Shown piece after piece: positions 1,584 to 59,963 of a stretch of DNA of 64,000 bases. The notes under the pieces were generated by a model. That model saw only the letters and a program-made list of their open reading frames with translations, did not search any database and was not told the origin of the DNA. A program made the translations under genes and the position numbers. Source of the DNA: Desulfobacula sp. (GTDB taxonomy: Bacteria; Desulfobacterota; Desulfobacteria; Desulfobacterales; Desulfobacteraceae); NCBI GenBank assembly GCA_023701135.1, contig JAMPXP010000018.1, positions 42,286 through 106,285 of the forward strand, read 5' to 3'. Every line of letters begins with the position of its first letter. The first letter of the stretch is position 1.

Positions 1584-4199
1584 ATGAAAAAACTGATCGA
1601 GTTTCTAAAAGATTTTTTTCAAAAAAAACCCCCTGCCGATTCTATAGATGCCGAAACCCTCAGAGCCGCATTTAAAGAACGGTATCATCATTTCAAAATG
1701 CTGTTGAACGCCAACAACAGCGCCCTTGAGACCATGACGGAAATTGAACAGGCCCTTCAGAACCGACGGCCCTTTGGCATGTCGTTTATCAAAAGCAATT
1801 GCATTTCCGTCACCGTGAGCCTGCTTCGCCTCTTGAAAAATCTGGAACAGCTCAGCGATGGAAAATATAACAAGCTTTATGCCCCATTTGATGAAATATG
1901 CAACACCATCCGGGGGTTGATCGAACAAAAAAAAGAAGCCCAGGATGAGCGCCTCATTATCCCCCTTACCGCCATCGACCGGACCCGGGCCGACCTGGTG
2001 GGAAGCAAAATGGCCAACCTGGGAGAGATATTAAATCTTGTCAAACTCAAAGTCCCGGCCGGTTTTTCCATTACGGCCCGGGCCTATGAATATTTCATGT
2101 CCTATAACGATCTTCAGACTGAAATCGACCGACGCTTTGTTTCCACCGATATCACGGATATGGAAGCACTCTATGCCTTAAGCCTGGATATTCAGGCCCT
2201 CATCACGGAGGCCCCCCTCCCGGAAGACCTTGAAAATGAAATTCACCGGGCCTATTCCGATCTTGAGCAGGAGATGGGAGGATCTCTCTCCGTTGCCCTC
2301 CGAAGCAGTGCCATGGGGGAAGATTCTGCTGCCAATTCTTTTGCCGGACAATACCGCTCCGAACTGAACGTCCGCCAAAAAGACCTGATCGCGACCTATA
2401 AGGATATCGTGGCCAGTAAATACGGATTCACTGCCATCACCTATCGTCTTAATAAGGGGATCAGGGATGAGGATATTTTCATGAGCGTGGGGTGCATTGC
2501 CATGGTGGATGCCCGGTCCGGCGGGGTCATGTATACCCGGAATCCCCTGGACTCCGGCGACAGTTCAGTGTTCATCAATTCGGCCTGGGGGCTGCCCAAG
2601 GCGGTTGTGGACGGCAGCGTGGACTGTGACCTGTTTGTGGTGGGTCGGCATCAGCCCATGCAGGTGTCCTACAGGGATATTAAAGAAAAAAAATCCCAGT
2701 TTCTCTGCTATGCCGAAGACGGAGTCTGCCAGCTTGAACTCACCGAAGAGGACAGAAAGGAGCCTTCCGTCAATGATGAGGAGGCCGTGGCCTTGGCAAC
2801 GCTGGCGGTCCGCATCGAGCAGTATTACGGGTCTCCCCAGGATGTGGAATGGGCCATAGACCGGAACGGCACTCTTTTTATCCTTCAATGCCGTCCTTTG
2901 CAGCAGACCGAGGCCCTGAAAATGAATTATCCGGAAGAGCTGATCCAAAAGACCCGTGAAAATGTTCTGGCTTCCGGCGGAACCAATATCTTTCCTGGGG
3001 TTGCCGGTGGCGAGGTCTTCATCATCAACAGCCCTGACGAAATGGTGAATTTCCCCAAAAACGGGATCCTGGTGGCCCGGCAGGCCCTGCCGGTATGGGC
3101 CTCACTCTTAAACAAGGCCTCGGCCGTCCTGACGGAACACGGCACCTTTGCCGGCCATCTGGCCAATGTGGCCAGGGAATTCAAGGTTCCTGCCATTTTC
3201 GGGCTGAAAGACATCGCCGATATATTACACACCGGGGACCTGATCACCGTGGACAGCAGCCTTTTAAGCGTCTATAAAGGGAAAATCGATATCCCGATTC
3301 AAGACCGGGAAACGGAAAAAGACATCATTGAAGGAAGTCCGGTCTACAATATGCTGCTGGAAGTCAGCAAATTCATTATCCCCCTGTACCTTTTAGACCC
3401 CTATTCTCCGGATTTCAAACCGGAAAACTGCAAGACCCTCCATGATATCACCCGGTTTGCCCATGAAAAATCCGTCCATGAAATGTTTAATTTCGGCAAG
3501 GAACATAATTTTTCCGAACGCTCCAGCAAACAGCTCTTTTATAAGGTCCCCATGCAATGGTGGATTTTAAACCTGGATGACGGCCTCAAAGAAGAGAGTC
3601 GGGAAAAATATATCCGGCTTGAAAATATAGCCTCCATTCCCATGATGGCCCTCTGGGAGGGGATCATCGCCGTGCCCTGGGACGGCCCGCCTGCCATTGA
3701 CGGCAAAGGAATGGCCGCTGTCATGTTCCAGTCCACGGCCAACCGGTCCCTTGAACCGGCCATGAAATCTGCCTATACCGAGCGCAATTATTTCATGATT
3801 TCCAAAAATTTCTGTAGCTTCACCTCCCGGTTGGGCTACCATTTTTCCATTGTTGAAGCCCTGGTCAGTAACAGAACGGCTGAAAATTATATCAGTTTCA
3901 GATTCAAGGGAGGGGCCGCGGACAGCCAGCGCCGGATCAGGCGGATCAAATTCATTGCCGATATCCTCACCGGGTATTCCTTCAGGGTTGAACTGCGGGA
4001 GGACAATCTGGTGGCCCGCGTGGAAGGGTATGAGATGGATTATATGCTTGAACGGCTCAATATCCTGGGGTATCTGATCATGCATACCCGGCAACTGGAC
4101 ATGATCATGTCCAACGAATCCGTCATCCGCTATTACCGGGCAAAAATCGATAAGGATATCCAAACCGTGGTTCTCGCAAAAAAAGCATCTGCTTCATAG
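1584..4199 (+). CDS. PEP-synthase/PPDK-like protein (ATP-grasp domain + His swivel domain + unknown C-terminal domain), copy 1
   Basis: VGSKMANLGE, RSSAMGED, SFAGQY, PQDVEWA, LQCRPL, and phospho-His motif GHLANVAREF. No PEP-utilizer C-terminal barrel motifs. Confidence 0.85.
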   Translation: MKKLIEFLKDFFQKKPPADSIDAETLRAAFKERYHHFKMLLNANNSALETMTEIEQALQNRRPFGMSFIKSNCISVTVSLLRLLKNLEQLSDGKYNKLYAPFDEICNTIRGLIEQKKEAQDERLIIPLTAIDRTRADLVGSKMANLGEILNLVKLKVPAGFSITARAYEYFMSYNDLQTEIDRRFVSTDITDMEALYALSLDIQALITEAPLPEDLENEIHRAYSDLEQEMGGSLSVALRSSAMGEDSAANSFAGQYRSELNVRQKDLIATYKDIVASKYGFTAITYRLNKGIRDEDIFMSVGCIAMVDARSGGVMYTRNPLDSGDSSVFINSAWGLPKAVVDGSVDCDLFVVGRHQPMQVSYRDIKEKKSQFLCYAEDGVCQLELTEEDRKEPSVNDEEAVALATLAVRIEQYYGSPQDVEWAIDRNGTLFILQCRPLQQTEALKMNYPEELIQKTRENVLASGGTNIFPGVAGGEVFIINSPDEMVNFPKNGILVARQALPVWASLLNKASAVLTEHGTFAGHLANVAREFKVPAIFGLKDIADILHTGDLITVDSSLLSVYKGKIDIPIQDRETEKDIIEGSPVYNMLLEVSKFIIPLYLLDPYSPDFKPENCKTLHDITRFAHEKSVHEMFNFGKEHNFSERSSKQLFYKVPMQWWILNLDDGLKEESREKYIRLENIASIPMMALWEGIIAVPWDGPPAIDGKGMAAVMFQSTANRSLEPAMKSAYTERNYFMISKNFCSFTSRLGYHFSIVEALVSNRTAENYISFRFKGGAADSQRRIRRIKFIADILTGYSFRVELREDNLVARVEGYEMDYMLERLNILGYLIMHTRQLDMIMSNESVIRYYRAKIDKDIQTVVLAKKASAS

Positions 4200-4206
4200 G
4201 CAGAGA

Positions 4207-6906
4207 TCAGGATTTTGATTCCTCAGCATCAATCAAGTCTTTATGCTCAATAATCAATTCATATTCTGAACTTTCCGGAACCCGGTTGATACGAAAACCG
4301 AGTTTTTTCCCCAGTTTCAGCATCTGGGTATTTTCAGCCAGAACGACGCCGTTAACGCGTTCAAGGCCTTTATCCCACGCTGCTTTCAAACATTGCCCCA
4401 ATAAGGCTGCCCCGATGCCTTTGCCCTGCCATCCATCGGTGATGGCCATGGCAAATTCACCCTGTTTTCCATCAAGATAATCAATGATCCGGCAAACCCC
4501 CACCATTTTTCTGTCCTTGTCCGTTCCCATGAGGGCCACCAGGGCAATCTCCCGGTCATAATCAATCTGGGTCAATTTGATCAGCATTTCCTTTGAAAGC
4601 TTTTTCATGGGGGAAAAAAATCTCATATACACACTTCTGGGGGACAGGGAATTAAAATGCTCGATCAAAAGGTCTGCATCACTGGGCCGGATGGGGCGGA
4701 TAAAGAAGTCCTGGCCGTCCACACTCTGCAATGTGGATTCATACTGCCAGGGGTAGGAGCTGATAATGAGGTGCCTGGGTCTTGGAACCGCTGAAGGGCC
4801 GATCAGAACCCTGGCGTCTACGGCCATCATCTCTCCGTTCTTCACCATGAGCGGGTTAATATCCAGGGCTTGAATTTCAGGAAAATCCGTGACCAGCCTT
4901 CCAACCCGGATCAAAAATTCCTCTACCATGGCCATACCGGCCGGGGGAAGATTTCTAAATCCCTTGAATACCCTTGATATTCGCGTCTTTTCAATCATCT
5001 GCCGGGCCAGGGGCCGGTTCAGGGGCGGCAGGCCCATGGCCGTGTCCTTATAGACCTCGGTCAGGATTCCTCCCATACCGAAAAGAAGAACAGGACCGAA
5101 ATGATCGTCTTTTTTGGCGCCGATGATGAGTTCATAATCCGCCTTGGGCTGCATTTTCTGAACCGACACCCCTCTTATCCGGGCATCCGGCGCAAACGCC
5201 CTGGCGCTTTTCATGATCCCGGCATAGGCGGCCATGACCTCTGCCGATGTTTTCAAATCCAGAACCACTCCATTACAGTCGGATTTGTGCAGGATATCTT
5301 TGGAACAGATTTTCAGAACCACCGGAAATCCGATCTGCTCGGATATTTCCGCAGCCATTTGCTCTGAATCGGCCATTTTTGTCACATTGGCAGGAATTCC
5401 ATAGGATTTCAAAAGTTCCTTGGCCCCGATTTCCGTAAGACTGGTTTCTCCCGCAGCAACTGCCTCATGAATGATCTGCCTAGCCTTCTGGCGGTTGATC
5501 ACCAGTTTGGTATCGGTCCTGACCGGAATCTCCTGGAGCATTTCAATATGTTTGCCGTATTGATAAAGATTTTTAAAGGCCCGGACCGCTCTTTCGGCGG
5601 AATCATAGGTTACAATACCGGCTTCATTAAAAACTTTTCTTGAGCTTTCAACATTGATTCCGCCGATCCAGGCGGTAAAAACAGGACAGGGAAAGGTTTT
5701 TATCTCCTCTGAAAGGGCCTTTGCCAGGCCCAGGATATCCATGGTACCGACGGGTGAGCAGATCAGGAGCAAGGCATCGGTTTCCGGTGCATTGGCGCAG
5801 ATCCGGGCGGTTTTAAGGTAAATTTCCCTTCCTGAATCCCCAAGGATGTCGATGGGATTTCCCCGGCTCCAGTTGGCCGGCAGAATCCGGTCCAGTTGAC
5901 CCAGGGTTTCCGCTCCAAGCTGGGCCGGTTCAATGCCGTGGGCGGAGAGAGCGTCCGCCGCCATGACACCGGGCCCTCCGGCATTGGTAATGATGGCAAG
6001 GCCTGAACCACCTGGCCGCCGCTGCTTTGCAAGGAATTCGGTACAGTCGAACAGTTCTTCAAATTCATTGACCCTCAGTATCCCGGCACGCTGAAATGCC
6101 GCATCATACAAGGCATCTTCCCCGGCCATGGCCCCGGTATGGGAGGCGGCTGCCATGGCTCCGGCCTTGGACCGGCCGGCCTTCAGGACAATAATGGGTT
6201 TCACCCGGGAAACGGCCCTGGCCGCACTCATGAAATTCCGGATATGGGTGATGTTTTCCATATACATGACAATGCTGCCCACGGAATTTAAGGAGCCGAA
6301 ATAATCGATCATATCGGCAAAATCCACATCCAGCATGGAGCCGAGGCTGACAAAATGACTAAATCCCACATGGTTTCGATGGGAAATATCCAGCACCGAG
6401 GTGCACACGGCCCCGCTCTGGGATAAAAAGGCAATCTTTCCGGGTAAGGGAGAAAGGTGGGCAAAGCTGGCGTTTAAAGATATGCCTGTATTGACAAACC
6501 CAAGGCAATTGGGACCGATGATCCTCAGGTTATTTTTTTTAGCCGTCTGAAGGATCGTCTCTTCCATCTGCCTGCCCTTGAGTCCGACTTCCTTACCGCC
6601 GGATGATATGATGACAACACCGGCAAGGCCTGCATTGCCGCAGGACTCCATGATTTCAGGCACCGTCCGGATGGGGGTGGCAATCACGGCCATATCAATG
6701 GCTGAATCTGCGTCCTCAATGCGGGCAAAGGATTTTTGGCCCATAATTTGGCTGTGTCCCGGATTTACCGGGATGATATTTCCTTTGAATCCTTGGCCCA
6801 GAAGATTTTTCATGATCAAAAATCCGACAGATCCTTCTTTTTCGCTTGCTCCGACAACAGCAACGGTTTTCGGATTAAAAAGCCTGTGCAAATTGACTGT
6901 AGTCAT
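4207..6906 (-). CDS. NDP-forming acyl-CoA ligase family protein fused to a C-terminal GNAT (Pat/YfiQ-type protein acetyltransferase)
   Basis: VAVVGAS, IIGPNCLG, SQSGA, ASHTG, NPIDILGD, ATP-grasp LDINPL, then GNAT with GWQGKGIG. Confidence 0.9.
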   Translation of the reverse strand: MTTVNLHRLFNPKTVAVVGASEKEGSVGFLIMKNLLGQGFKGNIIPVNPGHSQIMGQKSFARIEDADSAIDMAVIATPIRTVPEIMESCGNAGLAGVVIISSGGKEVGLKGRQMEETILQTAKKNNLRIIGPNCLGFVNTGISLNASFAHLSPLPGKIAFLSQSGAVCTSVLDISHRNHVGFSHFVSLGSMLDVDFADMIDYFGSLNSVGSIVMYMENITHIRNFMSAARAVSRVKPIIVLKAGRSKAGAMAAASHTGAMAGEDALYDAAFQRAGILRVNEFEELFDCTEFLAKQRRPGGSGLAIITNAGGPGVMAADALSAHGIEPAQLGAETLGQLDRILPANWSRGNPIDILGDSGREIYLKTARICANAPETDALLLICSPVGTMDILGLAKALSEEIKTFPCPVFTAWIGGINVESSRKVFNEAGIVTYDSAERAVRAFKNLYQYGKHIEMLQEIPVRTDTKLVINRQKARQIIHEAVAAGETSLTEIGAKELLKSYGIPANVTKMADSEQMAAEISEQIGFPVVLKICSKDILHKSDCNGVVLDLKTSAEVMAAYAGIMKSARAFAPDARIRGVSVQKMQPKADYELIIGAKKDDHFGPVLLFGMGGILTEVYKDTAMGLPPLNRPLARQMIEKTRISRVFKGFRNLPPAGMAMVEEFLIRVGRLVTDFPEIQALDINPLMVKNGEMMAVDARVLIGPSAVPRPRHLIISSYPWQYESTLQSVDGQDFFIRPIRPSDADLLIEHFNSLSPRSVYMRFFSPMKKLSKEMLIKLTQIDYDREIALVALMGTDKDRKMVGVCRIIDYLDGKQGEFAMAITDGWQGKGIGAALLGQCLKAAWDKGLERVNGVVLAENTQMLKLGKKLGFRINRVPESSEYELIIEHKDLIDAEESKS

Positions 6907-42231: not shown

Positions 42232-42573
42232 TTGATCCCGGACCAGGGCCCACAGAAAGACATTGCAGACCAGCGCCGAAGGATTGTTCCCCTGGCCAGG
42301 GGGAGGGTTTTGGAAATGGGTATGGGCTTGAATCTCCCGTTTTATAATCCCGACCGGATCGAATTCGTCTGGGGCCTGGACCCTTCCGTCATCCGGTGGC
42401 AAGACAGCCTGAATCCTTTGTGGATGAAGGTCAGCGGCGGCTGCCATCTCAACCGCTCCATATCAGGGCTGATCCAGAACAGCGGCTTTCACATCAACCA
42501 TATGGACAGCCGGTATATGAGCCCCATCAGACTGATCAGCTATAATTATCTGGGATCGGCCAGTCCCGTATAA
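42232..42573 (+). pseudogene. Class I SAM-dependent methyltransferase remnant with internal deletion
   Basis: ARGRVLEMGMGLNLPFY...GLDPS is joined directly to VIRWQDSLNPLW...GGCHLNR. The central core is missing, the glycine motif is shortened, and there is no good start or RBS. Confidence 0.7.
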
Positions 42574-42756
42574 TCCAATCTCTCTTTGCTGCCAAATTTT
42601 TTGTTTGGTAAAAATTCATCAGCCAAGGAACCCTTTATAAAATCGGTAAAAATGTTGCGTTCCCAACCGTCGAAGGGCTGCAAAGCGCTTTGACGGCCTC
42701 TGCCTTACACACCATAGATAATTTATTGCGATTGTCCTGAGTATAAAAATTTTCAT

Positions 42757-42784
42757 ATCGTTATATCTTAATTGACATAACGAT
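42757..42784. promoter_or_regulatory. ModE-type operator (orphan)
   Basis: ATCGTTATATC-TTAATT-GACATAACGAT: an 11-6-11 palindrome matching the ModE consensus ATCGNTATATA-N6-TATATANCGAT; overlaps TTGACA at 42772. Confidence 0.75.
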
Positions 42785-43074
42785 AATAATACTATAATGA
42801 AACAGACTATCGAATTCCGGTTTTTGATGGCTGGTATTGAATTTTTTAAAATCGGGGGACAAAAAGCAGACGCCTATTATATAACCAAATCACTATCATG
42901 AAAATATGATTATTAGGGAAGATAGCACGAGAACCCCTGGGGGAGGGAAGCATATTCTCATTTTAAATAGTAAGCGACAAATACCCCAATTATTGAACCG
43001 ATGTTTAACAAAGGGTTTCTCTGCACAAGCCTCCTGAGTGCAGTGAGGCTCAGATTTTCAGCAAATGCTTTTGT

Positions 43075-48494: not shown

Positions 48495-48903
48495 GATATC
48501 CGCCTTGGAGTAAAAAATGCGCTATTCTATTCTAAAAGCAAGTGACAAACAATTGATTTTTCATATTTTATTGGGATCCGGTATATTATCCTTCTATAGG
48601 TAACCGGCGGGCAGGCCACTGGCAGATATGCAGATACCATCGGCTTATTGCTATTGACTATGTGGAAAAGAGAAGTCATCAACCTGTTGAAACGACAGTG
48701 GGAAAATATCTCTTTGATCAGAAATCCGGGTAAATTGCACCTGGTAAGGCTTGAGCGTATTTTCGGATTCGGAATGTAATTCTGATTAAAAAAATCTCTT
48801 ACCGGGCAATGACCTTTAATCAGCCCTGAATCACAGATTAGGGTCTGGGTTTCTGATTTTTAATCGTTCTTTGGTCTTCGGGCAGGGCTGCCGGTACGGG
48901 CGC

Positions 48904-49230
48904 GCATTTGCCACAGGATTCTTCGGTGAGAAAATTGATGAAATACCTTGCCACGTCCACCATGCAGGTATTGGTAATCTTGCCCACGAGGGAGAAGATC
49001 TTGGTGCCCTTGCTGGACTCGGTGCCGATGGAGGGGAACCAGTCGGCCCCGTTATTGATGATCAGGGGCACATTGGCCCAGGTCTCGACGTTGTTGAGGG
49101 CCGATGGTCTTTCCCAGAGGCCTTTGACATTGGACCGGACATATTTGGGCCGGGGTTCCCCGGCTTTTCCTTCCAGGGAGGCCATGAGGGCCGTGGATTC
49201 TCCGCAGACAAAGGCGCCAGCCCCCTTGGT
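48904..49230 (-). pseudogene. NuoF/HydB-type flavin-NADH-binding subunit fragment with internal deletion
   Basis: GAGAFVCGESTAL..GEPRPK..LNNVETWANVP..GTKIFSLVGKITNT is joined directly to CMVDVARYF..ESCGKC, then the homology breaks off. No N-terminus. Confidence 0.85.
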
Positions 49231-49268
49231 GCACATGGGCCTTAACCTCAAAAAAGACGGAACTCTGC

Positions 49269-49604
49269 CTATGCTTCTCCCCGGCCGGGGAAAATATCCT
49301 TAAAGACGTCGTCATCGGCCCGGATGCACCGGTCTTTCAATTCCCGGTAGCATTCCATCAGGGCCCTGCCCTCATCGGTCAGTTTTGTTCCCGTAATCTT
49401 GTCGGCCAGGACCACGGGCTTTCCGAAATTTTTTTCCGTGGACTTGATCTTGCTCCACACGCTTTTATAGGACATTTTCAGCTCTTTGGCGGTCTGGTTG
49501 ATGGACCCTGTCCGGTCAATGGATTCAAGGATGGCCAACCGGCCTGAACCCATGATGATGCCGCCGTCGTCGGCAATAAGAAACTGGCTGGATCTGAGCT
49601 TCAT
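49269..49604 (-). CDS. modE: ModE-family regulator, N-terminal winged-helix only
   Basis: GSGRLAILESIDRTGSINQTAKELKMSYKSVW...TKLTDEG; no TOBE/molybdate-binding domains. Confidence 0.85.
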   Translation of the reverse strand: MKLRSSQFLIADDGGIIMGSGRLAILESIDRTGSINQTAKELKMSYKSVWSKIKSTEKNFGKPVVLADKITGTKLTDEGRALMECYRELKDRCIRADDDVFKDIFPGRGEA

Positions 49605-49731
49605 TTTTCGCCTTTATTTCAGATTGTCTTTTTCATTCTCCCCCTTATACATGCTTTTAAATTCGGTGTATATGGTTTTAGCCCTTCAAAACCGGCCGGA
49701 TCTATTTTTAAAAAAAAACAAACCGCCCCTT

Positions 49732-49759
49732 GACCTTATGTTAATCATAACATAAGGTC
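49732..49759. promoter_or_regulatory. ModE-type operator between modE and the fmdE-moeA-modABC genes
   Basis: Perfect palindrome GACCTTATGTT-AATCAT-AACATAAGGTC with 11-6-11 geometry; overlaps TTGACC-17-TAAGGT. Confidence 0.75.
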
Positions 49760-49802
49760 TATCCATGAACCATCCGAACCCCAAAAACCCTGGAAAGACT
49801 CC

Positions 49803-50411
49803 ATGGAAGATTTTGAAACCCTTCTGAAAGGATCGGCCGCCGCCCACGGCCACCTCTGCCCCGGACAGGTGGTGGGGGTCCGCATGGCCATGGAGGGATG
49901 CCGGCTTCTCGGCCTGGACAACCCGAGGGAACTGCCCCAGATCAAAAGCCTCATCGTGTATGTGGAAATGGACCGGTGCGCCACCGATGCCATTTCCTTT
50001 GTCACCGGCGTGAAATTGGGCCGGAGGTCCCTGAAATTCATAGACAACGGCATCATGGCCGCCACCTTTGTCCATCTTGAGACGGGCAAGGCCTTCAGGA
50101 TCGTATCCCGGGAAACCGCCAGGGATCTGGCTCACACCTATGCCCCGGAAATCGGGGATAAACACCAGCAGCAACTGGAAGCCTATAAGCGAATGAGTCT
50201 TGAGGACCTGTTCCGCATTGAAGAAGTCCGGGTAACGGTAAAGGCCTCGGATATGCCCGGCCCCACACGGTTCAAAGCCGTCTGCCAAAACTGCGGTCAG
50301 GTGGTCCGGGACAAGCGGGAAGTCATGAAAAACGACCGGATCCTCTGCAGGCCCTGCGCCCTGGGAACCTATTACCAACCCGTCACTCCACAAGGAAAGA
50401 AACATGTGTAA
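49803..50411 (+). CDS. FmdE-family protein with C-terminal Zn finger
   Basis: HGHLCPGQVVG, VEMDRCATDAI, CQNCGQ...LCRPC. Confidence 0.88.
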   Translation: MEDFETLLKGSAAAHGHLCPGQVVGVRMAMEGCRLLGLDNPRELPQIKSLIVYVEMDRCATDAISFVTGVKLGRRSLKFIDNGIMAATFVHLETGKAFRIVSRETARDLAHTYAPEIGDKHQQQLEAYKRMSLEDLFRIEEVRVTVKASDMPGPTRFKAVCQNCGQVVRDKREVMKNDRILCRPCALGTYYQPVTPQGKKHV

Positions 50412-51459
50412 AACCAGAAGAGACCCGGCCTTCAGAACCATACCCGTTGAAGAGGCCGTGGGCGCCACCCTGGCCCATGACGTGACCGAGGTCATTTCCG
50501 GAGAATCCAAGGGCCCGGCCTTTAAAAAAGGCCATAAAATAAGTTCCGGGGATTTGTGCCGGCTCATGCGCATGGGCAAAAACAATCTCTATATTCTGGA
50601 TCTCGCCGCCGATGAGGTCCATGAAGATGACGCCGTGCTGGAGCTGGCCGCTGCCCTGTCAGGACCCGGTGTCACCTTTTCCGCTTCTCCGGCGGAGGGA
50701 AAACTGGAACTGAGGGCCGACTATCCCGGTCTGTTCAAGGTCAAGGTTCAGGCCCTGGAAGAATTCAATATGCTCCGGGATGTGATGTGCGCTTCCATCC
50801 ACACCCATGCGGCCGTCAAAGCAAACCAGAGCCTTGCGGCCACCCGGGCCATCCCCCTGGTGATTCACCGGACCGACCTTGATGCCGCCGTAAATTTTGC
50901 CCGGGAGAATTACCCTATTTTCAGCGTCAAAATCTTCCAGCCGCTGAAAATCCGGCTCATCATCACCGGGAATGAGGTCTATAAGGGACTGATCCAGGAC
51001 CGTTTCAAGGCCATTGTAGAGCAGAAGACAACGGATTTGGGGGCCGTCATGGAAGAAGCCGTCATCCTTCCCGACGACCGGGACATGATCAGCCGACAGA
51101 TCCGGAACTATCTTGAAAAGGATACCGACCTCATCATCACCACCGGCGGCATGTCCGTGGACCCCGACGATGTGACAAAGGCCGGGATTGAGGATTCGGG
51201 CTTTGAACAGATCCACTATTCCGCAGCCGTGCTTCCGGGGGCCATGTTCCTTTTGGGATATCATAAAAATACGGCCGTCATGGGGCTTCCGGCCTGCGGC
51301 CTCTATCACAGGACCACGATTTTCGACCTGATCCTGCCGAGAATCATGGCCGGGGAAAAACCGGGACCGAGGGATCTGGCCCGCCTGAGCCACGGCGGTC
51401 TCTGCCTCAACTGCAAGACGTGCAGGTTTCCTGCCTGTTCCTTTGGAAAATCAGGATAA
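50404..51459 (+). CDS. Molybdopterin-binding (MoeA/MoCF-biosynthesis domain) protein with C-terminal Cys cluster
   Basis: LAHDVTE, ITGNEV, TTGGMSVDPDDVT, PGAMF, HGGLCLNCKTCRFPAC. Confidence 0.82.
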   Translation: MCKTRRDPAFRTIPVEEAVGATLAHDVTEVISGESKGPAFKKGHKISSGDLCRLMRMGKNNLYILDLAADEVHEDDAVLELAAALSGPGVTFSASPAEGKLELRADYPGLFKVKVQALEEFNMLRDVMCASIHTHAAVKANQSLAATRAIPLVIHRTDLDAAVNFARENYPIFSVKIFQPLKIRLIITGNEVYKGLIQDRFKAIVEQKTTDLGAVMEEAVILPDDRDMISRQIRNYLEKDTDLIITTGGMSVDPDDVTKAGIEDSGFEQIHYSAAVLPGAMFLLGYHKNTAVMGLPACGLYHRTTIFDLILPRIMAGEKPGPRDLARLSHGGLCLNCKTCRFPACSFGKSG

Positions 51460-51551
51460 TAAAATACAGGCGGATGACTTTGCATTTTATACGATATGGA
51501 CAGAAATACACCTTGATCCCCACAGAAAGATCATAATTTGAGGAAATTGAA

Positions 51552-52325
51552 ATGAAAAAAATAGGAACTGTTTATCTTTTAATCGCTTTACTTTACACAG
51601 GACTATCTTCTTTTGCCGTTTCAGCTTCAGCAAAAGAAATCACCGTATCGGCATCCATTGTCCTCAAAAACGCATTTGAGGAAATCGGCAAACGCTATGA
51701 ATCCAACACCAACACCGGGTGCGTCTTCAATTTTGGAGCCGCGGGAAACCTTCTCAAGCAGATTGCCGGAGGAGCCCCTGTGGATGTCTTTGCCTCTGCC
51801 GCAAAAAAATTTATGGATGAGGCCGACAGTGAAGGGCTGACTATTGCCGGCACCCGTGCCGAATTCACCTCGAACAGTATGGTTCTGGTTGTTCCGGCCG
51901 GTTCAAAAACAGCTCTCAATTCCTTTGAGGGATTGAATTCCGCAACGATCAAAAAGATTGCCGTGGGAAACCCAAAGACTGTTTCAGCCGGAGAATATGC
52001 CGAAGATGTGTTCCATTTTTATAAGATTTCCGCTTCCATTCAAGATAAATTCATTTACACGGAAAATGTACGGCAGGTTCTGGATTATGTGGCCAGAAAC
52101 GAAGTGGATGCAGGCGTTGTCTTTGCCACGGATGCCGCTGTCCGGACAAAAGAGGTAAAGATCGTGGCTGCGGCCCCTGAAACAAGCCATAAACCGGCTG
52201 TTTATACCGTAGCCGTGGTCAAGGGGTCAAAATATGAGGCCGAGGCCAGAGCCTTCATCGCCCTGCTTCTTTCCGGCGAAGGTCAGGCCGTTCTCAAAAA
52301 TTATGGTTTTAAAGCTGTTCGATAG
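51552..52325 (+). CDS. modA: Molybdate ABC transporter substrate-binding protein
   Basis: Signal peptide; APVDVFASA, IAVGNPK, NVRQVLDYV..EVDAG. Confidence 0.92.
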   Translation: MKKIGTVYLLIALLYTGLSSFAVSASAKEITVSASIVLKNAFEEIGKRYESNTNTGCVFNFGAAGNLLKQIAGGAPVDVFASAAKKFMDEADSEGLTIAGTRAEFTSNSMVLVVPAGSKTALNSFEGLNSATIKKIAVGNPKTVSAGEYAEDVFHFYKISASIQDKFIYTENVRQVLDYVARNEVDAGVVFATDAAVRTKEVKIVAAAPETSHKPAVYTVAVVKGSKYEAEARAFIALLLSGEGQAVLKNYGFKAVR

Positions 52326-52333
52326 GGCTTGAC

Positions 52334-52996
52334 ATGGAATCCGTTCTTTTTTCCGTGCGCCTGTCCCTGCAGGTGGCCTGCCTGTCAACCCTCCTGATCG
52401 TAGTGACCGGGATACCCATAGCCTATCTCCTGGCCCGGAAAGCGTTCAGGGGCCGGGAGGTGCTGGACATGATCTTCACCCTGCCCCTAGTGCTGCCGCC
52501 TACGGTCACGGGCTATTATCTGATTATCATTTTTGGCAGAAACGGACTCCTGGGCGGCTTTATTTACCAATGGACCGGGTGGACCATCATGTTCACCTGG
52601 TATGCAGCCGTGCTCGCCTCCTATGTGGTGGCCCTGCCCCTCCTGATCAAGACCGCCAGGGCCGCCATTGAATCCGTCGATAAAAATCTCATCAATGCCT
52701 CTTACACCCTGGGGCATTCCGAAATCAACACGGCCCTGAAGGTGATTCTTCCCCTTGCCAAACGGGGGGTTATCGCCGGGGCCGTGCTCGCCTTTGCCCG
52801 TTCCATGGGAGAATTCGGGGCCACCCTCATGCTGGCCGGAAACCTGCCGGGCAAGACCGAGACCATGCCCATTGCCATCTACAGCCTGTCCAACAGCGGA
52901 GAATGGAACAAGGCCCATGGGCTGGTAATGCTCATGACCCTGATATCCGGGCTTTTTCTCTACATTGCCAACCGGTATTCAAAAAGGACATTCTGA
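52334..52996 (+). CDS. modB: Molybdate ABC transporter permease
   Basis: LPLVLPPTVTGY, FARSMGEFGAT..AGNLPGKT. Confidence 0.95.
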   Translation: MESVLFSVRLSLQVACLSTLLIVVTGIPIAYLLARKAFRGREVLDMIFTLPLVLPPTVTGYYLIIIFGRNGLLGGFIYQWTGWTIMFTWYAAVLASYVVALPLLIKTARAAIESVDKNLINASYTLGHSEINTALKVILPLAKRGVIAGAVLAFARSMGEFGATLMLAGNLPGKTETMPIAIYSLSNSGEWNKAHGLVMLMTLISGLFLYIANRYSKRTF

Positions 52997-53703
52997 TGGG
53001 GCTTTACGTCAATCTGCAAAAAAAGGTCAATGGATTTTCTCTGGGCATTGAATGGGAAATCGGCCATGAACCGGCTGTGCTCTTCGGGTTTTCCGGGGCC
53101 GGGAAATCCATGACGCTTCAGTTGATTGCCGGGCTTATGAAACCGGATTCCGGAGTTGTCCACCTGGACGACACCCTGTATTTTGATTCCCTGTCCAAAA
53201 CGGATCTGCCTCCCCAGAAAAGGCTGTTCGGCTATGTGTTCCAGGACCTGGCCCTCTTCCCCCACATGACGGTATGGCAGAACATCCTCTACGGGGCCCC
53301 CCTTCTCTCCGGAAATGAAAAGGCAGACCGGGCCCATGACCTGATCCGGTCCTTCAAACTCTCCGGGCTTGAGAAAAGATACCCGTCCGAGATATCCGGG
53401 GGGCAGAAGCAGCGGGTGGCCTTTGCCCGGGCCCTGATCCGGCGGCCCAGGATGCTGCTCCTGGATGAGCCCTTTTCCGCCCTGGACCGTCCCCTCCGCC
53501 TGGAGATGCGGGATTTTTTAAAAGAGGTACGGGAAACCTTCAATATCCCCGCCATCCTTGTGACCCATGATTTTGACGAGGCCGCCGCCGTCTCGGATCA
53601 GATCATCATTTATGAACATGGCAGAATCACCCAGACAGGCTCCCCCGAGCAGGTTAAAACCGCTCCGGCCAACGGCTATGTATCCCATCTGATTTCAAGC
53701 TGA
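52996..53703 (+). CDS. modC: Molybdate ABC transporter ATP-binding protein
   Basis: GFSGAGKS, ISGGQKQR, LLLDEPFSALD, VTHD; ATG overlaps the modB TGA. Confidence 0.9.
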   Translation: MGLYVNLQKKVNGFSLGIEWEIGHEPAVLFGFSGAGKSMTLQLIAGLMKPDSGVVHLDDTLYFDSLSKTDLPPQKRLFGYVFQDLALFPHMTVWQNILYGAPLLSGNEKADRAHDLIRSFKLSGLEKRYPSEISGGQKQRVAFARALIRRPRMLLLDEPFSALDRPLRLEMRDFLKEVRETFNIPAILVTHDFDEAAAVSDQIIIYEHGRITQTGSPEQVKTAPANGYVSHLISS

Positions 53704-53764
53704 TCCCTGCTTCCCCCAATCGGGTTTCGTTACAACACCAGCACCAAGACGAGCCGGGGCCGCA

Positions 53765-54994
53765 TTATTTTCTGATCTCAAAGGCATCCACCGTTTCTTT
53801 GGCCAGGGTATAGGCCCGATACTGCAAGATATTGTCTTCCACCCGGACGGACTGGAAGCTGATGGTGCGGGACAGGGTCCTGGCCATGAGATGGTCATAC
53901 CGGTCGCCGGGCGGATAAAATTTAGGCCCGCTGTTGGAAATGATATAAACAACTCCCTTATCTTTTTCGGAAACGGGCTGGTGATTTTTCAGGGAAACGG
54001 TCCGGGCATAGCCGTGGTCATGGCCCTGGAGGACCAGATCAACGGAATGCCGGTCAAAAACGGGAACCAGAAGATCCTGGAAATCGGTATGGGTTTTGCG
54101 CTGTGAAATGGGATACGCGGGCTGGTGGATGACCACAATGGTCCAGGCTTGTGGGTTGTTGGATAAAACGCCTTCAAGCCAGAGGGCCTGTTCCGGAATT
54201 TTTTCATTCCCGTTCAACACCACCACCCGCAGGCCCTGGTAATCAAAGCGGAACACGGTTTCCTCAAGGCCTTCGGGCCCGTTCTCCGGCAGGGTGAACT
54301 GGGGCCGCCACAGGGAAGTGATGCGGCGCTGGTCGGCCGTGGTTTTCCGCGGGTCCGGGTATTCGTGGTTGCCCGCCGCAGGAACCAGGGGCATCGTCCG
54401 GGAGATCCATCCCAAGGCTGAAAAAAAATCACCCCAGAGCCGGTCATCGGGACCGTTGTCCACCATGTCCCCGGCAAAGAGCCAGAACCTGGCCTCGGGC
54501 TCTTTCTGAAAAGCCACCCTGAAAACCTGGGAACACATGGAGAACACCTCTTCCTGGACATCTCCGAAATACAGAAAGGTAAAGGGCTCCGGCTGGTCCT
54601 GGGCGGTTTTGAACTGGTTCCATTCGCTCCAGGCCGGGTCCTCCCCCACCCGGTAGGCATAGACTGTTCCCGGAAGCAGGCCGCTAAAGACAACGGAATG
54701 CTGAAAAACACCGGTTTTGTCATCCAGGGCCACGGGGGTGGAAAGGGCCGGAAAGGCCCCTGGCCTGATCTCCGGGTTCAGGAGATCCGATACCGGGATG
54801 ATTTCAGCCCTGGGGGAAAGGCCTTTCTCCCTTGTCCGCCAGGTAACGGCCTGGCTGCTGAAAGGGGTTTCGGTAAGATTCAGAATGATCCGTTCGGGAA
54901 GGGCCGCATCCCCGGCAAGGCCCCGGCCGGCACACAGGAGTAGACAAAGGCCTGCAACGATCATATAGCTTTTTATCCGTGGAAATCCTGTCAT
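53765..54994 (-). CDS. Exported purple-acid-phosphatase-like metallophosphoesterase (FN3 + calcineurin-like)
   Basis: Signal peptide; GDVQ, GDMVD, GNHE, IHQP, GHDH metal motifs. Confidence 0.88.
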   Translation of the reverse strand: MTGFPRIKSYMIVAGLCLLLCAGRGLAGDAALPERIILNLTETPFSSQAVTWRTREKGLSPRAEIIPVSDLLNPEIRPGAFPALSTPVALDDKTGVFQHSVVFSGLLPGTVYAYRVGEDPAWSEWNQFKTAQDQPEPFTFLYFGDVQEEVFSMCSQVFRVAFQKEPEARFWLFAGDMVDNGPDDRLWGDFFSALGWISRTMPLVPAAGNHEYPDPRKTTADQRRITSLWRPQFTLPENGPEGLEETVFRFDYQGLRVVVLNGNEKIPEQALWLEGVLSNNPQAWTIVVIHQPAYPISQRKTHTDFQDLLVPVFDRHSVDLVLQGHDHGYARTVSLKNHQPVSEKDKGVVYIISNSGPKFYPPGDRYDHLMARTLSRTISFQSVRVEDNILQYRAYTLAKETVDAFEIRK

Positions 54995-55128
54995 TTGACC
55001 CTCCTTTTCATGGGTTGTCCTTTTCCCTGTCTTGTTCCCTGTCGTAGACCATACCGCCGCAGTCTTAAAAAAGAAAGTTTTTCCTCTTTATCCGTTCTTG
55101 ACAAACCCGGCAACCCATACTAAATAGA

Positions 55129-55156
55129 ATCGTTATGTCAGTCAAGGCATAACCAT
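55129..55156. promoter_or_regulatory. ModE-type operator upstream of the formate dehydrogenase operon
   Basis: ATCGTTATGTC-AGTCAA-GGCATAACCAT (11-6-11); TTGACA lies at 55098. Confidence 0.75.
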
Positions 55157-55247: not shown

Positions 55248-57167
55248 ATGCGTCATCCGGAAATCGATACATGGAACGGAAAGGCCCGGGACCCGGATCT
55301 ATCCGTTCTGGATATGGAAAAGTGGCCGGGGCGGACGACACTCAGGGCCATCATGGGATGGAACGGCATCAAAGTCTGGGATAAGACCGTGGATGCTGTG
55401 GCTCTCCTGGCCGCCTATCTGGAAAAGACCAAAGATGAGTCCTGCGGCCAATGCACCCCCTGCCGCCTGGGCACCGTGCAGATGGCGGGCCTGGCCAAAG
55501 GCCTGACACAAGGCCGGGGCAAGACCGAGGACCTGACCCGCCTTAAATTTCTGGCCGTCCAGATCAGCCGGACCGCCCGGTGCGATATCGGCCGGACCCT
55601 GGCCCGCCCGGTTCTGGACCTGATGGAATCCTTTAGCAAAGATTTTGAGGCAGCAGCCAGGGGTACAAAAAGGGTGGAAGAGGGCCAAGCGTATACCTCC
55701 CTGGTCACCGCCCCCTGCGTGGCCGCCTGCCCCTCCCATGTGGATGTCCCCTTTTACCTGGAAAACATCCGCATGGACCGCTGGTCGGAAGCCATGGACA
55801 AGGTGCGGGAGGACTGCCCCATGCCCGGCACCATCGGCCGGGTCTGCGTGCGGCCCTGTGAAACCCGATGCCGGCGGGGCAACCTGGATGAGGCTTTGGC
55901 CATCAAAGGATTGAAACGCTTTCTGGCGGACCGGGAAATGGAGGGAAAACTGACTCCAAAGCCCTTGGCTCCGCCCAAGCGGCCTGAACGAGTGGCCATT
56001 GTGGGTGCGGGCCCGGCCGGTCTTTCCTGCGCCTATTACCTGGGACGCCAAGGCATAAAAACCACCATTTTCGAGGCCCAGGAAGGTCCGGGTGGCATGG
56101 CGGCCTACGGTATTCCGTCCTACCGCCTTCCCAGGTCAGTCATCGCCCACGAGGCCGCCGGAGTCGAAGCCCTGGGAGCCGTCATCCGATATAATACCCG
56201 TGTGGGCCGGGACATCACCCTGGAAGACCTGGCCGGACAGGGGTATAAGGCCGTGTTCGTAGGAGCCGGCGCCCCCGGTCCCACCCGCATGAACTGCAAG
56301 GGGGAGGACCAGGGGTATGAGAATTTCATGCCCGGTGTGGATTTCCTGGCCCGGGCCGCCCGGGGGGAAAAACCCCTTAACGGCGACCGGGTGGCGGTGG
56401 TCGGCGGCGGCAACGTGGCCATGGACTGTGTCAGAACCGCCCGGCGCCTGGGTTTTACCGATGTGAACCTCATCTACCGCCGCACGGAAGCCGAGATGCC
56501 GGCCGATGCCCTGGAAATTAAGGAAGCCCGGGAAGAAGGCGTGAATTTCCACATGCTCATGGCCCCCATCGAGGTCCAGGCCGATGCCGACGGAAAGGTC
56601 TCGGGCCTCAAATGCCTGCGCATGGAACTGGGAGAACCGGACAAAAGCGGCCGGCGGCGGCCCGTGCCCATTGAAGGCTCGGAATTTGTCATAGCCTGCG
56701 ACGCCGTCATCCCGGCCATCGGCCAGGCCTGCGCCGTGGACCAATTCCTGCCCCAGGCCGTGGTCAGTGAATGGAACACCCTGGTGGCGGATAAAACCAC
56801 GGGCCAGACCCAGGTGCCCCATATCTTTGGCGGCGGAGACTGCGCCACCGGGCCGGATATCCTGATCCGCGCCCTGGCGGCCGGCAAATACGGGGCTAAA
56901 TCCATTGTCCGTTACCTGGACACCGGGGATTGCACGCCCGGGCCTGAAGACCTGATGGAAGCCCTGACCGGAAATCCGGCCCTGTTTGAAACCGACCCGC
57001 CCCTGCCTTACCCCGGGGTGACCCGGCGGGAGGAAGCTTCGGTTCTGGCGCCCGAAACCCGGATTCAGAGCTTTGACGAGGTGGAAGCCGGATTATCCCC
57101 GGCCCAGGCCAGACAGGAGGCCAACCGCTGCCTTCGCTGTTACCGTATTCTTGTGGCTGCCCTCTAA
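55248..57167 (+). CDS. FAD/NADP(H) oxidoreductase subunit: NuoF-type 4Fe-4S N-terminus + GltD/SudA-like core (SfrB-like)
   Basis: AIMGWNG, ESCGQCTPC, APCVAACP, GRVCVRPCE..CRR, GAGPAG, GGGNVAMD, YRRT, GGDC..G, EANRCLRC. Confidence 0.88.
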   Translation: MRHPEIDTWNGKARDPDLSVLDMEKWPGRTTLRAIMGWNGIKVWDKTVDAVALLAAYLEKTKDESCGQCTPCRLGTVQMAGLAKGLTQGRGKTEDLTRLKFLAVQISRTARCDIGRTLARPVLDLMESFSKDFEAAARGTKRVEEGQAYTSLVTAPCVAACPSHVDVPFYLENIRMDRWSEAMDKVREDCPMPGTIGRVCVRPCETRCRRGNLDEALAIKGLKRFLADREMEGKLTPKPLAPPKRPERVAIVGAGPAGLSCAYYLGRQGIKTTIFEAQEGPGGMAAYGIPSYRLPRSVIAHEAAGVEALGAVIRYNTRVGRDITLEDLAGQGYKAVFVGAGAPGPTRMNCKGEDQGYENFMPGVDFLARAARGEKPLNGDRVAVVGGGNVAMDCVRTARRLGFTDVNLIYRRTEAEMPADALEIKEAREEGVNFHMLMAPIEVQADADGKVSGLKCLRMELGEPDKSGRRRPVPIEGSEFVIACDAVIPAIGQACAVDQFLPQAVVSEWNTLVADKTTGQTQVPHIFGGGDCATGPDILIRALAAGKYGAKSIVRYLDTGDCTPGPEDLMEALTGNPALFETDPPLPYPGVTRREEASVLAPETRIQSFDEVEAGLSPAQARQEANRCLRCYRILVAAL

Positions 57168-57203
57168 GGGAGAGTGGACTATTTTAAGATGAAAGGAATC
57201 CAA

Positions 57204-59963
57204 ATGCCGATTCTCAGCATTAACCATAATAGCCTGGAATTCCAGCCGGGCATGACCATTCTGGAAGTGGCCCGGAAAAACAATATCCATATCCCGACCC
57301 TGTGCCATTTGGCCGGTTGCACGCCCACGGGCCAGTGCCGGATCTGCGTGGTGGAAGTGGGCGGGACCGACGAGCTTTTACCGGCCTGCGAGACCCCGGC
57401 CGGTGAAGGCATGAAGATCATGACCCACAGCCCCGGGGTTCATGAAGCCAGGAAAACCATCATCGAGATGCTGGTGGCCTCCGGAGCCCATAACTGCCTG
57501 GTCATGCAATCTCCGGCCGATTCCTGGAATTCCGACCAGAAGGGCATCATGGAACAGCCATGGCACGGCGGCCTTTGCCCGGCCTATGGTGACTGCCGCC
57601 TCCAGGACCTGGCCGTTGAATACGATGTGCATGTAAAAGAGGACCATCTGGCCTGGGAAGGCCATCCCCTGGATGACGCCACTCCCATCATTGTAAGGGA
57701 TTTTTCCCGGTGCATCCTCTGCGGCCGGTGTGTTCAGGCCTGCAACGACGTCCAAGTCAACCTGGCCATTACCCCGCCCTGGGGCCGCCGGGCCGACCAT
57801 CCGGAAGGCTGGTATCCGGCTGCGGATTACGAGGCCTGCACCCATTGCGGGGAATGTGTCCAGGCCTGTCCGGTGGGCGCCCTGTTTGACCGGAAGAGTT
57901 TCGGAAAAGCCCTGGCCAACGAGATGGACCACATCCGGACCACCTGCCCCTATTGCGGGGTGGGCTGCCAGCTCCTGCTCCACGTCAAGGACGGAAAAAT
58001 CCTCAAGGTCACGGGGGTGGAAGACGGATCTCCCAACAAGGGCAGACTCTGCGTCAAAGGCCGGTTCGGCTTTGATTTCATTTATTCCGAAGAACGGCTG
58101 ACAAGCCCTTTGATCAAGGAAAACGGAGAATTCAGGAAAGCCTCCTGGGATGAGGCCCTGGACCTGGTGGCCCAAAAATTTACAACCATCATCCAAGAAA
58201 GCGGTCCCGACGCCCTGGCCGGGGTTTCCTGCGCCAGGAGCATCAACGAAGACTCCTACCAGATGCAGAAACTGTTCAGGGCCGTGTTCAAAACCAATAA
58301 TATTGATCACTGCGCCCGAACGTGACATGCCCCGTCTGTCGCCGGGCTGGCGACCACATTCGGATCAGGCGCCATGACCAATTCCTTTTCGGAATTTGCC
58401 AAGGCAAAACTCTTTCTGGTCATCGGGTCCAATATGACCGAGGCCCATCCCGTGGCCGCCACCTTTTTGAAAAATGCGGTGCAAAACGGGGCCCGGCTCA
58501 TCGTGGTGGACCCCAGGAAACACAGGCTCACGGATTTTGCCGATATCCATCTCCAGTTAAAGGTCGGCTGTGATATCGCCCTTCTCAACGGCATCATGCA
58601 TGTGCTGATCAAAGAAGATCTCTATGACAAGGATTTTGCCCTGAACAAATGCACCGGGTTCGAGGCCCTGGAAAAAACCGTTGCCGAATATCCACCACAG
58701 CGGGCTGCGGAAATCTCCGGAGTGGATGAAGACACCATTATCCGGACGGCCCGGCTCCTGGCCTCCATCAAACCGGCCATGGCCTGTTATACCCTGGGCA
58801 TTACCGAGCACACCTGCGGAAAAAACAATGTCATGACCGTTGCCAATCTTCAGATGCTCCTCGGCAACCTGGGCATGGAACTGGGCGGGGTCAATCCCCT
58901 CAGGGGCCAGAACAATGTCCAGGGCGCCTGTGACATGGGAGCCCTGCCCAATGTATTCCCCGGCTACCAGAGGGTGGATGACCCGGCGGCAAGGAAAAAA
59001 TTCGAGTCGGCCTGGCAGGTGACGGATCTTCCGGACAAGCCGGGCCTCATGATTCCCGAGATGATGCACGGCCTGACCAACGGCAAGGTCCGGGGGTTTT
59101 ATATCTTCGGCGAAAACCTGGCCAACACGGAACCGGATATGAACAAGGTGGCTGAGGAACTTTCTTCGGCCGAATTCATCGTGTGCCAGGATCTCTTTCT
59201 CACGGAAACCACCCGGTTCGCCCATGTGGTGTTGCCGGCGGCGGCCTGGAGTGAAAACAACGGCACCTTTACCAACAGCGAACGACGGGTGAGCCGGGTC
59301 CGCACGGCCAGCCCGCCCCCGGGCCAGGCCAAACCCAACTGGTGGATATTCAAGGAAATTGCAAAGCGCTTCGGCCATGACTGGCCCTCCTCCAGCGGCA
59401 AAGAATTATGGGACAATGAAATCAGCATCCTGGCCCCGGCCCTGGGCGGCATCAAATACGGCCGCATTGAACAGGACGGCCTTCAATGGCCCTGCCCCAC
59501 CCCGGATCATCCCGGCACCGCCTTCCTGCACAAGGATGGGAATTTCACCCACGGCAAGGGCGTTTTCATGCCTGCCGACTGGACTCCCCCGGCCGAAGTG
59601 CCCGATGCCCAATACCCCTTTGTCCTCAGCACGGGAAGAAGGCTTTACCATTACCACACCCGGACCCAGACCGGCCGGTGCGATGGGCTCAATGACCTTC
59701 TGGGGGAAGAACGGGCCGATATTTCCCAGACCGACGCCGCGCAACTGGGCATCACCCAAGGAGAGCGCATCCGGGTGAAATCCCGGCGGGGGGAGGTCTG
59801 CGTCACCACCCATGTCACACCGGAAGTGCCGCCGGGAATGGTCTGGATGGCCTTTCATTTTACAGAAGGCAATGCCAACTGGCTCACCCACGCCGCCCTT
59901 GATCCCTTTACCCTGACGGCGGAATACAAGGCCTGCGCGGTTCAGCTTGAAAAAATAACCTGA
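57204..59963 (+). CDS. fdhA: Selenocysteine-containing Mo/W-bisPGD formate dehydrogenase alpha subunit (TGA 58323-58325 = Sec)
   Basis: ORFs 57174-58325 and 58374-59963 are in frame. Readthrough gives [30 protein letters not shown]. Also 2Fe-2S and 2x4Fe-4S motifs, CPYCGVGC, LRGQNNVQGACDMG, TNSERR, EYKACAV. Confidence 0.93.
58326..58354 (+). promoter_or_regulatory. Bacterial SECIS element
   Basis: Stem GTCGCC(58338-43)-GGGCT-GGCGAC(58349-54) begins 12 nt after the UGA, the geometry known for bacterial fdh SECIS. Confidence 0.8.

Follow-up and report, generated by a model that had tools for sequence, protein, structure and literature searches.

We analysed a 64,000-nucleotide (nt) stretch of DNA from Desulfobacula sp. 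(hereafter the window), corresponding to positions 42286-106285 of contig C40 in a 4.8-Mb genome (G000) that comprises 42 contigs and is 98.9% complete. The window carries a gene for an unusually short ModE-type regulator, divergent from an fmdE-moeA-like-modABC gene cluster and followed at some distance by a formate dehydrogenase (FDH) operon, together with three palindromic boxes of the ModE operator type. By the textbook account ModE is a molybdate sensor whose mechanism needs Mop/TOBE domains: the Escherichia coli protein has 262 amino acids (aa), and its two Mop/TOBE subdomains bind molybdate and switch on DNA binding. The regulator gene and the boxes lie at the following window positions:

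49269-49604, minus strand: short modE, 111 aa, ModE N-terminal winged-helix domain only (HTH_1 / ModE_repress)
42757..42784, no strand: Box 1, ATCGTTATATC-TTAATT-GACATAACGAT, a predicted orphan operator of the ModE type with a TATAAT-like element after it, between convergent genes
49730..49759, no strand: Box 2, TTGACCTTATGTTAATCATAACATAAGGTC, between the divergent modE and fmdE genes
55129..55156, no strand: Box 3, ATCGTTATGTC-AGTCAA-GGCATAACCAT, upstream of the FDH operon

The 111-aa protein matched Pfam HTH_1 (5.8e-9) and the NCBIfam family ModE_repress (TIGR00637; 7.4e-17), the latter with 61 bits and hence under the 98.5-bit cut-off, and its PDB profile matches were 2IJL (best, 1.8e-10) and 1B9M. 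An AlphaFold2 (AF2) model (14 orthologues; predicted local distance difference test score, pLDDT, 91.3) had as its top Foldseek match the E. coli ModE N-domain (1B9M/1O7L, TMq 0.77), with 2IJL at TM 0.73. The winged-helix-turn-helix (wHTH) of the ModE N-terminus is present, and C-terminal tandem Mop/TOBE domains are absent from the protein, which stops at residue 111. Judged by its profile matches and predicted fold, it is a complete ModE N-domain without a TOBE domain. Orthologues of 105-111 aa (48-88% identity) were found in 13 of 25 same-genus genomes, the window's own included, and an alignment of 14 sequences contained 32 invariant columns. Species-representative genomes yielded 232 relatives, those listed being all of the Desulfobacterales type (Desulfobacula, Desulfospira, Desulfobacter, Desulfotignum, Desulfamplus, and others), and most of the best 150 cluster representatives from a search of 1.8 billion proteins were 90-150 aa long. 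By this conservation, the short modE is predicted to be an intact conserved gene and not an accident of truncation.

An exact-pattern scan for TTATRT-N8-RCATAA located the three cores at window positions 42761-42780, 49736-49755, and 55133-55152, all inside 12.4 kb, whereas 100 shuffles gave an expectation of 0.01 matches and none of them (0/100) reached the observed count. The 28-nt boxes of 11-6-11 layout (starting at 42757, 49732, and 55129) are these 20-nt cores with 4 nt on either side, and the core at 49736-49755 is a perfect palindrome that was matched on both strands. Elsewhere in the genome the exact pattern occurred only twice more, at C8:239322 (within a 493-aa open reading frame, ORF) and at C30:121342. 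We also ranked sites genome-wide with a half-site position weight matrix (PWM) built from the window boxes and related boxes, so that its training set included the three window boxes; these ranked 1-3 at 31.4, 23.2, and 18.8 bits, with the next site at 18.5 bits and the others at 15.7 bits or less. A chance origin of the three boxes is ruled out by the shuffles together with the gap in PWM scores. Among further candidate operators, C8:239322 was rejected as intragenic and C25:55835 as an AT-rich TTATAT/ATATAA match; a larger regulon in G000 was likewise rejected, the only credible site beyond the window boxes being a degenerate one before a modE paralogue on contig C14.

By motif comparison, the window boxes equal the RTTATGT-N8-RCATAAY site that is required for binding of Methanosarcina acetivorans ModE in electrophoretic mobility shift assays (EMSA) and that precedes fmd and molybdate-transporter operons in that organism (PMC12327845). 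Box 1 additionally matches the E. coli ModE consensus ATCGCTATATA-N6-TATATAACGAT, as quoted in PMC2700814, at 18 of 22 positions. All three boxes are predicted to be ModE-type operators. Box 2 ends 47 nt from the fmdE ATG and 131 nt from the modE ATG, and Box 3 ends 95 nt before the ATG of the FDH operon, with 138 nt between it and the start of a divergent phosphoesterase gene; cognate palindromes are thus found before Mo-related operons. A TTGACC-N17-TAAGGT element spans Box 2, which, together with the closeness of the box to the start codon, would fit promoter occlusion, the consensus promoter scan being uninformative on this point; just downstream of Box 3 that scan returned TGGACG-17-TATAAT. 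The promoter-like elements at the boxes are only weakly supported. No Moco (molybdenum cofactor) riboswitch or other known RNA was detected in the window at Rfam gathering thresholds.

These results bear on an earlier, sequence-only reading of the same DNA. Its gene calls (modE, fmdE, moeA-like, modABC, and the FDH operon) agree with our profile searches, and its description of the local ModE as a 111-aa winged helix lacking a metal-sensing domain is borne out by the Pfam/NCBIfam and AF2 fold matches. Its three boxes with a common TTATRT-N8-RCATAA core were recovered by the exact-pattern scan and set apart from chance by the shuffles, and its placement of two of them before fmdE-moeA-modABC and the FDH operon stands at the distances given above. 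The genome-wide PWM scan that it proposed put the window boxes at the top of the genome. It had also reported promoter-like elements at the boxes, to which the promoter scan lends only weak support.

To relate the boxes to the regulator, we compared loci within the genus and across the order. In an alignment of 11 relatives at Box 2, CTTGACCTTATGTT..TTAACATAAGGTCAAG was kept while the flanks diverged, and the box is conserved as a 32-bp palindrome next to the orthologues, which we regard as a strong phylogenetic footprint. Among 80 Desulfobacterales short-modE loci, in which a box was counted at no more than one mismatch and no more than 3.5 kb from modE, 53 had a box. Where fmdE was present, the box ended 9-211 nt (median 40) before the fmdE start at 46 of 50 loci, with modE divergent in 42 of these. 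Within the genus, the exact extended box was present in 11 of 13 genomes with the orthologue and in none of the 12 without it (counts of 11/2/0/12; Fisher p = 2e-5, shared ancestry not corrected). As for the two exceptions, in one the contig ends at modE and in the other the box carries one mismatch. From this pattern, the box is predicted to belong to short ModE.

We then considered whether a TOBE domain could be supplied by another protein. Neither a full-length ModE nor a stand-alone Mop was found in G000. Its sole TOBE protein is TunR-like (346 aa; Phage_integrase plus two TOBE domains; C36:14775-15815), an integrase-plus-TOBE architecture that the window regulator does not have. The gene for this protein lies downstream of a TauE gene, both being divergent from a MOT1-family molybdate transporter gene (C36:12464-15815), and the shared intergenic region carries GTCACG-N14-CGTGAT at C36:13701, a site of which the window holds no copy. 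The integrase-TOBE chimera was reportedly given the name TunR later, in a description by Kazakov in 2013, and we take the GTCACG-N14 motif to be its site. A motif of this type has been described upstream of Desulfovibrio mod operons, beside an integrase-Mop chimera (Rodionov et al. 2004, PMC545781). The TunR-like locus on C36 looks like a second, TOBE-based Mo/W circuit apart from the ModE boxes. Within the genus the box did not track TunR (counts of 3/3/8/11; Fisher p = 1), and two genomes (G009 and G014) have the TunR-like protein and lack both short ModE and the box.

There was no TOBE match at all in the short-ModE-plus-box genomes G001, G002, G012, G013, G015 (one contig, 100% complete), and G023, nor, outside the genus, in the closed chromosome OZ245369.1 or in Desulfamplus magnetovallimortis, both of which have short ModE and the box. 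Weak single TOBE matches were seen in ~370-aa frames of some relatives. The sister genome G021 carries a 69-aa stand-alone Mop directly after modC (L050, G021:C204, 4500-5150), followed by a further ModE-type box (CCACCTTATGTCAATAATGATATAAGGTGG) before a 704-aa molybdopterin oxidoreductase gene; the whole segment is missing in G000, where the modC junction is intact, indicating that the Mop is dispensable. The module is predicted to use no TOBE/Mop domain, in cis or in trans. Three candidates offered by the sequence-only reading fall with these results. A separate Mop protein as trans sensor is rejected, given that G000 has none and that closed short-ModE genomes lack any TOBE domain; TunR as the protein on the boxes is rejected by the distribution across genomes and by the distinct palindrome found where its gene lies; and another full-length ModE is rejected, as the genome has none. 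Of the search it had suggested for full-length ModE or TunR, the first part came back empty and the second led to the protein on C36.

The genes around the short modE, as identified by Pfam and NCBIfam profiles, are the following:

49803-50411, plus strand: fmdE-like, 202 aa; Pfam FmdE (7.9e-30) and zf-dskA_traR, with an AHGHLC metal motif and a C-terminal CxxC...CxxC zinc finger
50404-51459, plus strand: moeA-like, 351 aa; MoCF_biosynth (PF00994) only, with the Cys-rich tail GGLCLNCKTCRFPACSFGKSG
51552-52325, plus strand: modA, TIGR01256 above cut-off
52334-52996, plus strand: modB, TIGR02141 above cut-off
52903 or ~52993 to 53703, plus strand: modC, matching profile positions 2-224 of 353 only
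53765..54994, minus strand: purple-acid-phosphatase-like metallophosphoesterase (Pfam Pur_ac_phosph_N and Metallophos), transcribed away from the FDH operon, with Box 3 in the intergenic region between them
55248-57167, plus strand: FDH operon, NAD(P)-binding GltD/NuoF-type subunit (Pfam and NCBIfam)
57174-59963, plus strand: FDH operon, selenocysteine FdhA with an in-frame TGA at 58323-58325 (Pfam and NCBIfam)

The AHGHLC-type motif and the zinc finger of the FmdE-like protein are features described for PF02663 structures (PMC2954224). The moeA-like gene starts 8 nt inside the end of fmdE, and its product, which has no Pfam match to MoeA_N or MoeA_C, aligns to MoeA domain III of 1UZ5 and 1FC5 and has a C-terminal Cys tail ending in ...GGLCLNCKTCRFPACSFGK; a paralogue of this gene is located at C14:34132-35142. 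ModC lacks a C-terminal TOBE domain, and no PF03459 match was found anywhere on the contig. That domain is the usual site of molybdate trans-inhibition in the transporter ATPase, so that this function, too, would be missing its usual domain here. ORF callers split FdhA at the TGA, with ORFs at 57174 and 58374 in one frame, which fits a selenocysteine FDH. Directly downstream of modE, a 137-aa ORF (48838-49251, minus strand) matches no more than the end of a NuoF FMN-binding domain plus the initial 20 positions of the 4Fe-4S region; it is probably a pseudogene fragment at an edge of the modE-to-FDH cassette.

Gene linkage across the 80 loci points to a conserved core made up of the box, fmdE, the moeA-like gene, and modE. 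Among the carriers of the module is the cultivable Desulfospira joergensenii DSM 10085 (locus L076). Specifically, fmdE adjoins short modE in 50 loci and the moeA-like gene in 47, whereas modABC is attached in only 5, suggesting that the transporter joined the module recently in this lineage. A mobB gene was present in 34 loci, directly after modE in ~20 and after the moeA-like gene in most others, an example being the fmdE-moeA-like-mobB-modE operon at L064. Counting fmdE, moeA-like, mobB, and moeA-PBP_like within 4 kb of short modE, 74 of the 80 loci had at least one of them, and at least three of the six loci with none are cut by contig ends. Moreover, the closest homologues above ~200 aa are ModE-N::MobB fusions (P0003, P0007, P0010, P0015, and P0030), two of which lie in moeA-moeA/PBP_like-modE::mobB operons. 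Fusions between an FmdE N-domain and PF00994 have been documented as well (PMC2954224), matching the overlapping fmdE and moeA-like genes of the window. Linkage and fusions of this kind typically indicate that proteins work together and perhaps interact physically. The proposal that FmdE or the Cys-tailed MoeA-like protein acts as a sensor in trans thereby gains real but circumstantial support.

Fusions of 277-336 aa occur in operons beside exbB-exbD genes (L055:2800-6933 and L057:2804-6855); in the single upstream region inspected, that of L055, no ModE box was seen before the moeA-moeA/PBP-modE::mobB operon. Other Desulfobacterales (L114, L115, L122, and L136; ~3990-4900) have separate modE-mobB pairs that overlap or lie no more than ~20 nt apart, without the ModE box studied here. 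We found no description of a ModE-MobB link or fusion architecture in the searchable literature.

The sister genome G021 also informs on the origins of the two outer boxes. Box 1 and its TATAAT-like element form a 54-nt island (window 42745-42798) that is 85% identical to G021 L053:5188-5241, where the orthologous box and promoter precede a selenocysteine FDH operon with a Tat signal; the gene flanking that locus in G021 sits on another contig in G000 (C37:31000-31700). Homology between the two genomes breaks inside the left half of Box 1, beside a tRNA-like sequence, which suggests that the operator there marks a rearrangement or integration breakpoint. Because the orthologous 54 nt precede an FDH operon in G021 and the homology breaks within the box, Box 1 would be a rearrangement relic of a promoter. 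On the plus strand after Box 1, up to position 42906, there is no ORF of at least 35 aa and just one of 34 codons; a hidden gene behind Box 1 is ruled out by this, by the lack of an Rfam match, and by the comparison with G021. A 113-aa ORF without a Pfam match (window 42232-42573, plus strand) ends just before the box. At Box 3, the core plus 6 nt per side (32 nt) is identical in G021. No other same-genus genome has Box 3 or an FDH operon closely orthologous to this NADP-type one, and no box was found at more distant FdhB-type loci. The FDH operon would accordingly be a lineage-specific member of the regulon, an old membership being unsupported by this distribution, and the pattern is consistent with an acquired cassette.

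What the sequences show directly is where the sites lie, how well they are conserved, how they co-occur with short modE, and that TOBE domains are lacking; from this we infer DNA binding, the sign of regulation, and any Mo/W response. On balance, we think it likely that a functional ModE-N-only dimer occupies the boxes, repressing at Box 2 and controlling FDH at Box 3. The 111-aa protein would be functional and belong to a clade of ModE-N-only proteins with a wide distribution in Desulfobacterales, and most likely it binds as a dimer to the canonical palindrome (C)CTTATGTT-N6-AACATAAG(G). As Box 2 appears to overlap the divergent modE and fmdE promoters, short ModE would be expected to repress both its own gene and fmdE-moeA-like-modABC. 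Box 3 would extend this control, with an uncertain sign, to the NADP-type selenocysteine FDH operon and perhaps to the divergent phosphoesterase gene; Box 1 would be what remains of a promoter from which the sister species still expresses a periplasmic FDH, and TunR presumably runs a separate circuit at its own locus. Any metal signal would most likely arrive through a cofactor-maturation protein (MoeA-like, FmdE, or MobB), in which case the signal would be the status of the cofactor or pterin-metal and not the free oxyanion.

Several points weigh against this interpretation. The TIGR00637 score of short ModE is below the family cut-off; the co-occurrence statistics of box and short ModE ignore shared ancestry; a paralogue with a similar box could cross-bind; and the linkage is equally explained if fmdE, moeA-like, and mobB are merely regulated targets. 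With promoters only weakly assigned, Box 3 might instead serve activation. Furthermore, loss of the C-terminal Mop domain leaves E. coli ModE able to bind DNA whether or not Mo is present (cited in PMC12327845), so that short ModE may be metal-blind. How a signal might reach the protein is the more tentative part of our proposal: it is possible, if far from assured, that short ModE contributes the DNA-binding subunit to a split regulator in which sensing falls to the Cys-tailed MoeA-like protein and/or FmdE here; in sister lineages that role would fall to MobB, which even occurs there as a fusion with ModE-N. This arrangement fits the linkage data as well as the partner hypothesis raised for Campylobacter jejuni (PMC3417520).

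A rather unlikely alternative is that short ModE binds the boxes as a constitutive, self-limiting repressor that sets the levels of fmdE-moeA-like-modABC and FDH, its Mo/W responsiveness having been lost with the TOBE domains. The Mo-independent binding of Mop-less E. coli ModE speaks for this, as do the unresponsiveness of M. acetivorans ModE to molybdate in vitro (PMC12327845), the many carriers without any TOBE partner, and the position of Box 2 within the upstream region of modE itself. However, operator and regulator are strongly conserved across the order and tied to Mo/W-cofactor genes; the ModE sites of Geobacter metallireducens decayed after loss of the DNA-binding domain, indicating that sites need selection to persist (PMC2700814); and a C. 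jejuni ModE-like protein without a metal domain acts in vivo as a repressor in a Mo/W-dependent manner (Taveirne et al. 2009, summarised in PMC3417520). It is very improbable that the main occupant of the boxes is the second short ModE of the genome, or that both proteins bind them interchangeably. This paralogue (115 aa, C14:28853-29200) is 34% identical to the window ModE with the same wHTH, and its gene sits between aldehyde:ferredoxin oxidoreductase genes and a xanthine-dehydrogenase-family operon (C14:22000-35200); its own upstream site, CGATATGTTTGTGTTGACACAACC, is a degenerate form of the box motif that is a perfect TTATGT-N8-ACATAA in G010 (C2:116021). Yet the extended box CCTTATGTT..AACATAAGG adjoins the window-type orthologue even in genomes in which only one ModE-N gene was found (such as G012, G013, G018, and G019). 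Also near the paralogue are genes for a MoeB/ThiF-like protein and for another MoeA-like protein with a Cys tail. Barely credible, finally, is a TOBE protein that supplies sensing or binding, either as a TunR-like protein on the boxes or as a Mop docking on short ModE: although a TunR-like protein exists on C36, and G021 has its Mop with another box beside it, TunR has a palindrome of its own that does not occur in the window, the box tracks short ModE and not TunR in the genus, and the module persists in G000 without Mop and in closed genomes without a TOBE domain.

Returning to the favored reading, a functional ModE-N-only repressor, the retention of canonical and strongly conserved operators by a sensor-less ModE argues that it is not a decaying remnant. 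Closed genomes without any TOBE domain remove every TOBE-based explanation, and conserved operons and natural fusions name MoeA-like, FmdE, and MobB as candidate partners. Were the split regulator real, it would read the assembly state of the Mo/W-pterin cofactor instead of free molybdate, and would explain metal sensing by Mop-less ModE proteins, a question open since 2004 and 2009. The matter also bears on the balance between Mo and W that sulfate reducers strike for their formate dehydrogenases, molybdate being toxic to these bacteria.

Compared with known systems, the window protein shares with E. coli ModE (1B9M, 1O7L) the N-terminal winged-helix fold, the palindromic operator class, and a modABC-type target, and differs in ending after the N-domain and in being accompanied by a ModC that also lacks TOBE. 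M. acetivorans ModE, whose repressor role was established by CRISPR interference and EMSA, recognizes essentially the same motif, with sites before fmd and molybdate-transporter operons, but it is archaeal, keeps one Mop subdomain, and controls alternative nitrogenases (PMC12327845). The putative ModE of Agrobacterium tumefaciens (2IJL, 135 aa) is likewise a stand-alone ModE N-domain, with a solved structure, and comes from another lineage; its entry reports no function, operator, or partner. C. jejuni Cj1507c also has no metal-binding domain and regulates mod and tup transporters (Taveirne et al. 2009, via PMC3417520); its sensor is described as unidentified, with partner proteins or sensing of Moco or the tungsten cofactor (Wco) being proposed. 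Cj1507c differs in its coiled-coil C-terminal region and in its Mo/W response, which is established in vivo, and, unlike for the window clade, no linkage to fmdE, moeA-like, or mobB has been reported for it. Further parallels are the sulfate reducers Desulfovibrio and Desulfotalea psychrophila, in which ModE is likewise a DNA-binding domain only and an integrase-fold/TOBE protein is separate (PMC545781); Desulfovibrio also has the GTCACG-N14-CGTGAC-type site, found here beside the TunR-like gene. No E. coli-type ModE sites were found in the Desulfovibrio/Desulfotalea genomes, and the role of their short ModE was left open, with the "mechanism not clear" (PMC545781), whereas canonical boxes are present here, conserved, and tied to short ModE. 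Sensor-less ModE proteins (Desulfovibrio in 2004, C. jejuni in 2009) and canonical ModE boxes were thus already known. Within the searchable literature, what is new is that the two are demonstrably coupled across an order, as judged from genome comparison, in a clade for which all TOBE-based routes appear excluded and which shows linkage to MoeA-like, FmdE, and MobB proteins, in some cases as fusions.

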